A model generated the notes under the pieces. The model ran no database searches, was not told the origin of the DNA, and saw only the letters and a program-made list of their open reading frames with translations. Positions 14,924 through 17,106 of a stretch of DNA of 64,000 nucleotides are shown in pieces. The stretch is from Escherichia coli (GTDB taxonomy: Bacteria; Pseudomonadota; Gammaproteobacteria; Enterobacterales; Enterobacteriaceae), in assembly GCF_017348835.2 (NCBI RefSeq), contig NZ_CP071375.1. One strand, written 5' to 3'. The translations under genes and the position numbers were made by a program. Numbering within the stretch: position 1 is the stretch's first letter; each line of letters begins with the position of its first letter.

Positions 14924-14948
14924 ATCTGGAGTTTGGCATCAGTCAAAA

Positions 14949-15368
14949 TCAAAGAAACCATTCCGGCTTAACGCCAAATCGGGCTGAAAGTGCCTTAATG
15001 TGGGATATTGTCAGGGATCGTTGTCCAGACAAAATCTGACTAACCAGGGATTTAGAGCCGATTTCGTTCTTCAAATCCGCATAGGTCAGATTATGTTGAT
15101 CAATCAACGTGCGAAGTAACGCCACGCCAACCGGCATTGCCGCAACGGCTTTGTCGAACTCTGCAAACTTTTCGTTGTTGTTTTCATACTCTGCAATGCG
15201 GCTCGCCAGAAAGTCGATAAGTGGATTGGTGTCATCTTCTTCAATCAAATATTCGACCAGTTCCAGTGCTTCACGATAATCATCTTCTGAGTCACTGCCT
15301 CCCAGAAAGGGGACTGCATTGACCAGTTCTCTTGTTGCTTTAACAGCGCGTGCAGCATTAGCAGTCAT
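14949..15368 (-). CDS. HigA-like antitoxin (XRE-family HTH)
   Basis: 139-aa ORF with a C-terminal XRE-type HTH (LTYADLKNEIGSKSLVSQILSGQRSLTISHIKALSARFGV); 4-nt overlap with the upstream toxin-like ORF; resembles chromosomal HigA but sits at a different locus. Confidence 0.75.
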   Translation of the reverse strand: MTANAARAVKATRELVNAVPFLGGSDSEDDYREALELVEYLIEEDDTNPLIDFLASRIAEYENNNEKFAEFDKAVAAMPVGVALLRTLIDQHNLTYADLKNEIGSKSLVSQILSGQRSLTISHIKALSARFGVKPEWFL

Positions 15369-15676
15369 TCTTTGTTCTCTCTGTAGTAACGTGTCAGTTT
15401 GTCATACTCTGCGTGATTCGTTATGTGCTTCACAAAGAACCGCTTATTAACAAAGTTTATGTAGGCAATAACCCTAAGATTGTTCCCGCCGACATCCAGA
15501 ACGTACCATTTGTTGCGATATTTAAAATTGTCGAGGTTGGGAAACGCCGTTCGCATTTCTTCTGGCGTAGAAAAATCCGTTTCCTTAATAACCCGATACA
15601 ATGCCTGAAGAGCCAGAGCGTCGTTAGGATATTTACGCGCAGACTCTTCAAATGGCACTTTAGAAATGATGTGCAT
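15365..15676 (-). CDS. HigB-like (RelE/ParE superfamily) toxin
   Basis: 103-aa basic ORF upstream of, and translationally coupled to, the HTH antitoxin; contains a FPxLDNFKY...VGGN.LRV motif as in HigB-type toxins; toxin-first order typical of HigBA. Confidence 0.7.
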   Translation of the reverse strand: MHIISKVPFEESARKYPNDALALQALYRVIKETDFSTPEEMRTAFPNLDNFKYRNKWYVLDVGGNNLRVIAYINFVNKRFFVKHITNHAEYDKLTRYYRENKE

Positions 15677-15837
15677 TTTTAAGTTTTAACTTCCTTATAG
15701 TAAGTAAACAGCCACATCTGCGAGTTCTATCCTCATGTGTTCGGAAACTATAGCTCATCAAATCCAAGTTCACAATATGTAAACACTTGCGCGTGATATA
15801 ATTACCCCCAAAATCCTCATAACCACTCTGCAAAAAG

Positions 15838-16611
15838 TCAGTTCTGATTCACCCCATCAAGCACATCCCCCTTTATCAAGCAACGCTGCGTCAGCGACAG
15901 ATCTTCCGTTTGTGTGTCGCGCCCGGCGATGGGTTTGAGGACGAGTTTACGGTTGGGGGTATAAGTAAAGCGCGTGAGCGCGGGATAGCTTAACTTGCCA
16001 AACCAGCCGTGAACACGCTGCCATTTGGCGTCTTTTACCTGATACAGACTGGTTATCCAGTAACCAGAATTAAACTGCATATCCAGCAATTGCGTGTGAC
16101 CATTGCCTTGTAAATCCAGCAAATCATCTACGCCAGTTTTGCTTGCAGTGTAGAATCCCCAGGGTTCAAAGACACAGGGACGGCCTTCGTGCGTGAACGT
16201 CATGAGGATTAAATGTGCATAGGGCGCCAGACCATTACCGGCACTTGGCAACCAGATAACCAGATCCTGAATGCCGTTACGATCCAGATCGGCGCGATAG
16301 AGCTGCCCTTTGCCCGCCATATTTGCCAGCAACCCCACTGGCACCGTCCAGGATTTACCCGCGCGGTCTTTAGCGGTTAATTGCCAGTAATCCTCTTCAT
16401 TTGGCATCTTCTCAAGCGTCACGCCAGCAACGCCGATTTTTCTAAAATGCCAAGTTTGCTCGGTATAATAAGGCATGGTCAGGAGAGGTTTCAGCGCCCG
16501 CTTTTGCGCATATTCGCTGCCACTCATTGGCAGATATTCGGTAAAGCTGGTGGCCTGTGCAGACTGCACTAAGCTCAATAAAAAAGCGCACATCCCTGTT
16601 CTGATGTTCAA
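15838..16611 (-). CDS. hypothetical secreted protein with two D-x-D-x-N-G-x-x-D-like motifs
   Basis: 257-aa ORF with a predicted Sec signal peptide (MNIRTGMCAFLLSLVQSAQA); DLDRNGIQDLVIW and DLQGNGHTQLLD resemble FG-GAP/VCBS-type calcium-binding repeats. No family I can name with confidence. Confidence 0.55.
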   Translation of the reverse strand: MNIRTGMCAFLLSLVQSAQATSFTEYLPMSGSEYAQKRALKPLLTMPYYTEQTWHFRKIGVAGVTLEKMPNEEDYWQLTAKDRAGKSWTVPVGLLANMAGKGQLYRADLDRNGIQDLVIWLPSAGNGLAPYAHLILMTFTHEGRPCVFEPWGFYTASKTGVDDLLDLQGNGHTQLLDMQFNSGYWITSLYQVKDAKWQRVHGWFGKLSYPALTRFTYTPNRKLVLKPIAGRDTQTEDLSLTQRCLIKGDVLDGVNQN

Positions 16612-16635
16612 TTCCCTGAATTCCCTGATGAAGAA

Positions 16636-17106
16636 TTATTCTTCTTCCACCGCTAACTGCGCAAATCCGCCGTTCCCTTCCCAGCCTTCCAGTCGTTGAT
16701 AAACGGTTTCTACCGCATCTTTAATCGGCTGGGTCATTGGGTAGTAAAAGCCGACGATATCCGGCTGGATGCCGAGAAAAATCACCTCGCCAATATCTTC
16801 TTTCAACTGGTCGATAAGATAGTTCAGCGGCATGTTATGGGTAGTCATCATAAACATTTCGGCGATATCATCCGGATCGATGATGCGGATCTCGCCGGGG
16901 TTTAGCCCCATATCCGTGGCGTCGACAATCAGCAGTCGTGTCGGGCGCAGTTCGCGGATAGCGACAATGTCGTTTTCCGGTGCGCTACCGCCGTCAATCA
17001 CCACCCAGTTGCCTTTCGGCGCGGCGGCGCACTTTTCCGCCAGCAGCGGACCTGCGCCATCATCGCCCATCATGCTATTGCCAACACAGAGTAAAACGTC
17101 AGTCAC
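16636..17106 (-). CDS. hycI: hydrogenase 3 large-subunit maturation endopeptidase
   Basis: 156-aa ORF, last gene of the hyc operon; HycI/HybD-type protease signature. Confidence 0.9.
   Translation of the reverse strand: MTDVLLCVGNSMMGDDGAGPLLAEKCAAAPKGNWVVIDGGSAPENDIVAIRELRPTRLLIVDATDMGLNPGEIRIIDPDDIAEMFMMTTHNMPLNYLIDQLKEDIGEVIFLGIQPDIVGFYYPMTQPIKDAVETVYQRLEGWEGNGGFAQLAVEEE

Follow-up and report, generated by a model that had tools for sequence, protein, structure and literature searches.

A predicted exported protein with a calcium-loop motif, encoded directly behind hycI in Escherichia coli

Several proteins are known from the literature to block peptidoglycan hydrolases; X-Tfi(XAC2610), PliI-Ah and Tsi1 have a propeller-like topology in common, and all three inhibit their target by means of a loop that is inserted into the active site. 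X-Tfi(XAC2610) is a lipoprotein and the immunity protein to the peptidoglycan hydrolase X-Tfe(XAC2609) of the Xanthomonas type IV secretion system (PDB 4QTQ), PliI-Ah is a periplasmic i-type lysozyme inhibitor (PDB 3OD9/4PJ2) and Tsi1 is an immunity protein of the Pseudomonas aeruginosa type VI secretion system (PDB 3VPJ), whose topology has been grouped in the literature with those of PliI and X-Tfi. CarG, the carbapenem intrinsic-resistance protein of Pectobacterium (PDB 4O7J), is a further periplasmic protective protein of relevance here. Repeats of the FG-GAP/VCBS type (Pfam PF01839 and PF13517) build the seven-bladed propellers of the integrin alpha chains and of the Psathyrella velutina lectin PVL. 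The present analysis concerns an uncharacterised gene, referred to as X together with its product, on the minus strand of a 64,000-nucleotide stretch of Escherichia coli DNA (the window). X can be described with good confidence as an exported, periplasmic binding module that contains a calcium loop. It is already present in the databases as a hypothetical protein and holds nothing surprising to the specialist.

X is a real gene under selection. An initial interpretation of the window, made from the DNA letters without database searches (the sequence-only reading), had proposed an open reading frame of 257 amino acids, and the same frame, running from a TTG start codon, is present in the open reading frame list (Table 1). 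In RefSeq, the identical gene of strain PE164 is annotated as WP_001360181.1, a 'hypothetical protein' of 251 amino acids that begins at an internal ATG. All six E. coli alleles that were examined carry the TTG. Starting at the ATG would leave a signal peptide of 14 residues without a basic n-region, whereas the TTG start supplies such a region, as is found in the Salmonella and Klebsiella orthologues. The TTG start is favoured, since the orthologues from Salmonella (...KIIVWSGLLFFCIAARALA ahead of TDF) and Klebsiella spallanzanii (MKEIIWVGLLLLGYAANALA ahead of TSF) carry classical signal peptides. X could not be assigned to a named family at the outset, and it indeed gave no Pfam match even at E ≤ 10 and no match in NCBIfam, PADLOC or PHROG searches. 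The literature, when searched with guessed locus tags and with the names of neighbouring genes, returned nothing on X.

The export signal of X is a predicted Sec signal peptide, in which a basic residue is followed by a hydrophobic core (9-residue Kyte-Doolittle maximum of 2.64) and by A-Q-A ahead of the predicted cut; the mature protein would begin with TSF. It contains no usable lipobox and no twin arginine. The same kind of N-terminus is a family-wide feature, as a hydrophobic core was present in 110 of the 116 family members with an intact N-terminus, with Tat-like N-termini in only three and a lipobox in one. The Sec signal with cleavage after AQA, as first proposed, is therefore borne out at the level of sequence, and it would place X in the periplasm.

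An exhaustive phmmer search for relatives of X gave 224 clusters (50% identity) at E ≤ 1e-3, and an alignment of 130 sequences was used for all conservation and cysteine counts. The sequence-only reading had noted two D-x-D-x-N-G-x-x-D-like motifs resembling FG-GAP/VCBS calcium-binding repeats. Both motifs exist. Motif 1 (residues 108-116) is canonical, fitting the calcium-loop pattern D-x-D/N-x-D/N-G-x-x-D/E, and is nearly invariant, D108, D110, G113 and D116 being kept in 119-126 of the 130 family members. The likeness to FG-GAP/VCBS loops thus stands for this motif, while motif 2 proved degenerate in enterobacteria: its family consensus is D-L-D/N-x-D-G-x-A-E, and the enterobacterial clade carries Q168 and Q174 in place of the D/N and the E. 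The two motif-bearing segments of X also align to one another (hhalign P 4.9e-5). Because the residues of motif 1 are conserved and the segments align mutually, the motifs are not a product of chance. The motif 1 region was the only one with weak matches in the PDB to the FG-GAP calcium loops of integrin alpha (E 0.03, sub-threshold). X would bind calcium through at least one such loop.

The AlphaFold2 model of X, computed from the 130-sequence alignment, is all-beta with 17 strands, a mean predicted local distance difference test (pLDDT) score of 91.6 and a predicted template modelling score of 0.87; it shows disorder in the signal peptide and in the last residues. A Foldseek search of the PDB with this model found nothing below E 0.1, with CarG alone reaching an appreciable probability (0.54), and a search of AFDB50 returned only the family of X itself. 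In a profile search of PDB sequences, XAC2610 appeared at E 1.3, which is sub-threshold, and the profile of the long family members (see below) matched no chain of the PliI/X-Tfi type. Structure prediction and remote-homology searching had been suggested as a check on X; they yielded a confident all-beta model and no confident match to a known family.

Typical members of the family are 330-360 amino acids long and continue into an additional C-terminal domain of about 90-100 residues, which ends in ...LYGQR..CSPELLWA. Such long forms were found in metagenome-assembled genomes (MAGs) of Acidobacteriota, in Gallionella, in Thiolinea and on a Pseudomonas-like contig. The forms from Escherichia, Salmonella and K. 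spallanzanii comprise 250-269 residues, end shortly past a conserved DLS motif and lack the C-terminal domain. The 11 intact short enterobacterial sequences of the alignment all carry both Cys146 and Cys244, a combination that no long form shows; this suggests that the pair could form a compensating disulfide. Evidence that X is a pseudogene fragment of a gene that is longer in other strains had been named as an outcome that would refute the sequence-only reading. Most relatives are indeed longer by about 90-100 residues, but the short form is a stable, selected and clade-wide variant and no recent pseudogene. For intact alleles, the fragment explanation was rejected on three grounds: the ratio of nonsynonymous to synonymous substitution rates (dN/dS), a length that differs little between three genera and the pair of cysteines specific to the clade.

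Relatives of X are named 'hypothetical protein', 'Periplasmic or exported protein' or, in Leminorella richardii, 'FG-GAP repeat', and 'VCBS repeat-containing protein' is a further automatic name in UniProt (Pseudomonas nitroreducens and others). The closest long-form relative (P0026) shows 52% identity to X and has 345 amino acids with a signal peptide if started upstream; its gene sits between menF and an unannotated open reading frame of 184 amino acids (L008 2287-2841) without an NCBIfam match. Two tandem family paralogues of 333 and 336 amino acids were seen in a Bryobacterales MAG (L013 2004-4024). One Salmonella enterica entry in AFDB, A0A633HV03, is named 'Hydrogenase 3 maturation protease', is 343 amino acids long and shares 74% identity with X across 188 columns of the alignment; a frameshift or a lost stop codon has apparently led to HycI and X being called as one fused protein.

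Comparison with the described systems suggests that X probably belongs, as a divergent member, among the FG-GAP/VCBS-like repeat proteins. Among the 130 family members, FG-GAP_3 was matched by 8 at E ≤ 1e-3 and by 46 at E ≤ 0.1, and FG-GAP by 1 and 14, respectively; X itself matches no FG-GAP model. Unlike the seven-bladed propellers, the mature protein of 237 residues has only two detectable motif-bearing repeats. X also differs in its family-specific N-terminal segment YLP(L/M), and most of its relatives differ in the added C-terminal domain. With the PliI/X-Tfi/Tsi1/CarG group, X and 110 of the 116 relatives share the predicted export to the periplasm. PliI-Ah is half the size of X, and X has no match to Pfam PliI (PF16743), which among the 130 members was matched by one at E 0.027. 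Whereas X-Tfi is encoded beside its cognate effector gene, X has neither a lipobox nor a conserved neighbour, and no candidate for an adjacent cognate effector emerged, as no neighbouring family recurred in more than 7 of 88 loci. X cannot be filed in the PliI/X-Tfi family, because neither sequence membership nor an adjacent effector was found. CarG has 157 amino acids, and its gene lies within the car antibiotic cluster, a context that X does not share.

In the window, X shares the minus strand with hycE, hycF, hycG, hycH and hycI, and the start codon of X faces the stop codon of hycI, which encodes the hydrogenase-3 maturation protease. The distance of 24 nucleotides between them, given already by the sequence-only reading, is correct. 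Two other statements in it had to be reversed. X had been taken to be transcribed toward hycI, although it lies downstream of hycI on the same strand, and the region proposed as its own promoter is found beyond its stop codon, on the 3' side, where it forms the upstream region of the neighbouring higB-like gene. The idea that X has its own promoter was hence rejected on orientation. A consensus scan showed no promoter-like or terminator-like site in the 24-nucleotide gap, and no terminator-like fold was found 3' of X toward higB. Since X is on the same strand and the gap contains no such site, X is most simply viewed as the last cistron of the hyc transcription unit, with which it would be co-transcribed. 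The order in Salmonella is hycI, a gap of 26 nucleotides, X, hydN and hypF, and in K. spallanzanii it is hycI, symE, X, parDE, symE and ascBFG.

A scan of 5426 complete E. coli genomes gave some match to X in 2299 and at least 80% of the gene in 1462 (27%), all of them chromosomal. About 840 genomes (~15%) retain part of X, and those sampled hold only its first 69-182 nucleotides. Intact X is missing from about 73% of E. coli, including K-12, with the hyc operon retained. In K-12/B-type strains, 32 nucleotides of the 3' end of X (15838-15869; L004 2942-2973) are joined to the spacer at 16615, from which it follows that the interior of the gene was deleted; the hycI-ascB spacer of K-12 therefore holds a relic of X. 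This scar junction is present in 2422 of the 5426 genomes (45%), MG1655 among them. At least three independent types of deletion occur in E. coli, and many truncated versions are found in the database entries of E. coli and Salmonella. X counts as an accessory gene with repeated losses, and hydrogenase 3 can do without it.

Intact alleles of X are under purifying selection, with dN/dS values of 0.15-0.27 among E. coli alleles and against Salmonella and K. spallanzanii; the hyc genes gave 0.00-0.10. Within E. coli the X alleles are unusually divergent, with nucleotide identity falling to 85% and synonymous divergence (dS) reaching 0.56. The corresponding dS was 0.23-0.37 for hycI and 0.06-0.20 for hycF, hycG and hycH. 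The high dS at X and hycI may reflect old alleles or recombination in this terminal part of the operon.

Directly behind the stop codon of X lies a HigBA-like toxin-antitoxin (TA) module, whose GC content of 0.37-0.46 compares with 0.51 for X and 0.53 for the window. In strain AST85, position 15838 is joined directly to 14942 in the ascB flank and no toxin-antitoxin genes are present, so that this strain represents the empty site; because X is joined directly to the ascB flank there, the pair is an insertion exactly after the X stop. In PADLOC, the higB-like gene matched PD-Lambda-2_A (1.5e-15) and the higA-like gene PD-Lambda-2_B (2.4e-14), the latter antitoxin spanning only the first 115 of 402 profile positions; the pair looks like a reduced relative of the PD-Lambda-2 anti-phage system. 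An IS621 element (IS110-like) adjoins the orphan higA-like gene in E24377A and O104:H4, from which higB is deleted (L002 1309-2289; L028 4009-4989). The X of K. spallanzanii is flanked by other TA modules (symE, parDE and symE), and for this reason the region on the 3' side of hycI/X looks like a hotspot for such modules. In the history that was reconstructed, X is ancestral behind hycI, K-12 carries the scar and the TA pair was inserted later.

Table 1 Features of X and its surroundings (positions in the window)
Feature	Position	Strand	Remarks and basis
X coding sequence	15838..16611	-	774-nucleotide open reading frame, 257 amino acids from TTG; open reading frame list, RefSeq hypothetical protein
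X stop codon	15838-15840	-	
X TTG start codon	16609-16611	-	
Alternative ATG start (Met7)	16591..16593	-	RefSeq choice, giving 251 amino acids
Predicted Sec signal peptide, residues 1-20 (MNIRTGMCAFLLSLVQSAQA)	16552..16611	-	Cut after A-Q-A; sequence features; pLDDT 55-58
Motif 1, canonical integrin-type calcium loop, residues 108-116 (DLDRNGIQD)	16264..16290	-	D108-L-D110-R-N112-G113-I-Q-D116
Motif 2, degenerate, residues 166-174 (DLQGNGHTQ)	16090..16116	-	D166-L-Q-G-N170-G171-H-T-Q174
Cys146 codon	16174..16176	-	Half of the short-form cysteine pair
Cys244 codon	15880..15882	-	Other half of the pair
hycI, hydrogenase-3 maturation protease	16636..17106	-	Directly upstream of X, same strand
hycI stop codon	16636-16638	-	
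hycI-X spacer, 24 nucleotides (TTCTTCATCAGGGAATTCAGGGAA)	16612..16635	-	Two AGGGAA Shine-Dalgarno-like copies
AT-rich inserted module	14943..15837	-	Directly after the X stop, outside X; AST85 junction, GC content
higA-like gene, 139 amino acids	14949-15368	-	
higB-like gene, 103 amino acids	15365-15676	-	
Upstream region of the HigBA-like pair	15677-15837	-	
Promoter-like site	15775-15747	-	Only one facing the higB-like gene; consensus scan

The genomic position of X invites two explanations. If X were a tenth gene of the hyc set, with a role connected to hydrogenase or formate hydrogenlyase, its place directly after hycI in Escherichia and Salmonella, and one symE away from it in K. spallanzanii, would be accounted for; the genes are adjacent on the same strand (24 nucleotides apart in E. 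coli and 26 in Salmonella), and the scan of the E. coli region showed no terminator-like site in the gap. In Thiolinea disciformis, too, a relative with 35% identity directly follows hypF-hypC-hypD-hypE on the same strand (L019 1074-6909). However, X carries a Sec export signal, unlike the Hyc and Hyp maturation proteins, which act in the cytoplasm, and the hyc operon is retained in K-12 and the many other E. coli that are without intact X, so that X does not always accompany it. The wider context was surveyed in 88 loci, of which 56 had 1.5 kb or more of flanking sequence on one side or both. Genome and metagenome scanning with a family alignment yielded 14 loci and then 68, across which no partner gene was conserved. 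None of the 68 metagenome loci had hyp or hyc genes beside X; the most frequent neighbouring family reached its seven loci within one lineage. The neighbours were unrelated housekeeping genes such as menF, fruBKA, ugd-arnT, a heptosyltransferase, an acyl-CoA dehydrogenase and carAB, and, as judged from its N-terminal sequence only, an argininosuccinate synthase-like gene. A general hydrogenase link was rejected, since Thiolinea is the sole case outside the enterobacteria and its second paralogue (P0064) sits elsewhere, between carAB and a Fer2/MoCoBD/XdhC molybdoenzyme cluster (L103). The adjacency was regarded as lineage-specific or coincidental, and it is very unlikely that X is a hydrogenase gene. 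The other explanation, by which X would be the third component of the HigBA-like or PD-Lambda-2-like module that adjoins it, is suggested by the PADLOC matches of the pair; it is effectively refuted by the distribution. It had been asked whether X always co-occurs with the pair, which it does not: both genes accompany X in this window, O26:H11 and O2:K2:H1, HigA alone does so in E24377A, O104:H4 and ST1193, and X stands without the pair in AST85 and Salmonella. Moreover, the pair is an AT-rich insertion behind the X stop codon, and X itself has no PADLOC match.

With regard to function, X would be a soluble protein, exported through Sec to the periplasm and built from FG-GAP/VCBS-like beta-sheet repeats, with one or more calcium loops of the integrin type to stabilise it. 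It would most likely act by binding rather than catalysis, because no recognisable catalytic domain is present. The reading placed first is that X, produced together with formate hydrogenlyase, may be a protective binder or an inhibitor of a peptidoglycan hydrolase, or of another agent that attacks the envelope from outside the cell. That X inhibits or binds an incoming cell-wall hydrolase in the manner of PliI or X-Tfi is speculative and should be held only tentatively. The resemblance of X to the X-Tfi/PliI-Ah/Tsi1 group is suggestive but weak, and lectin-type propellers score as well for X as this group does. Next in rank, and somewhat less probable, X may be a periplasmic, calcium-dependent, lectin-like binder of glycans (peptidoglycan, precursors of lipopolysaccharide or capsule, or imported oligosaccharide) that inhibits no enzyme. 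It is improbable that X in E. coli is a functionless, decaying relic riding on read-through transcription from hyc; the independent deletions, the K-12-type scar, the remnants confined to the 5' end, the truncated database versions and the missing C-terminal domain would all fit such decay, but intact alleles keep their low dN/dS even at a synonymous divergence of 0.3-2, the length of X is near-constant across three genera and the short form has its own cysteine pair. A broader version of the inhibitor proposal holds that the approximately 220 clusters form an unnamed new family of periplasmic, calcium-stabilised inhibitors of cell-wall-degrading enzymes, distantly related to PliI/X-Tfi/Tsi1, and that the enterobacterial gene became coupled to the hyc operon, whose anaerobic induction would have protection made in the gut; this is rather unlikely. 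More remote still is a real link to hydrogenase maturation, suggested by the separate placements behind hycI and hypE. The remaining probability falls to a function outside all of these readings.

The analysis corrects the transcriptional context of X and delimits a widespread protein family, including a short enterobacterial variant, for which neither Pfam nor NCBIfam offers a model. As things stand, X is one more uncharacterised accessory periplasmic protein, which is worth annotating and which yields a testable functional hypothesis. If the protective-binder reading is true, many E. coli, both pathogens and commensals (O26, O111, O104:H4, O121, ST1193, E24377A and 55989), and most Salmonella would possess a factor for envelope defence that is missing from K-12, and this factor would be switched on alongside fermentative hydrogen metabolism.
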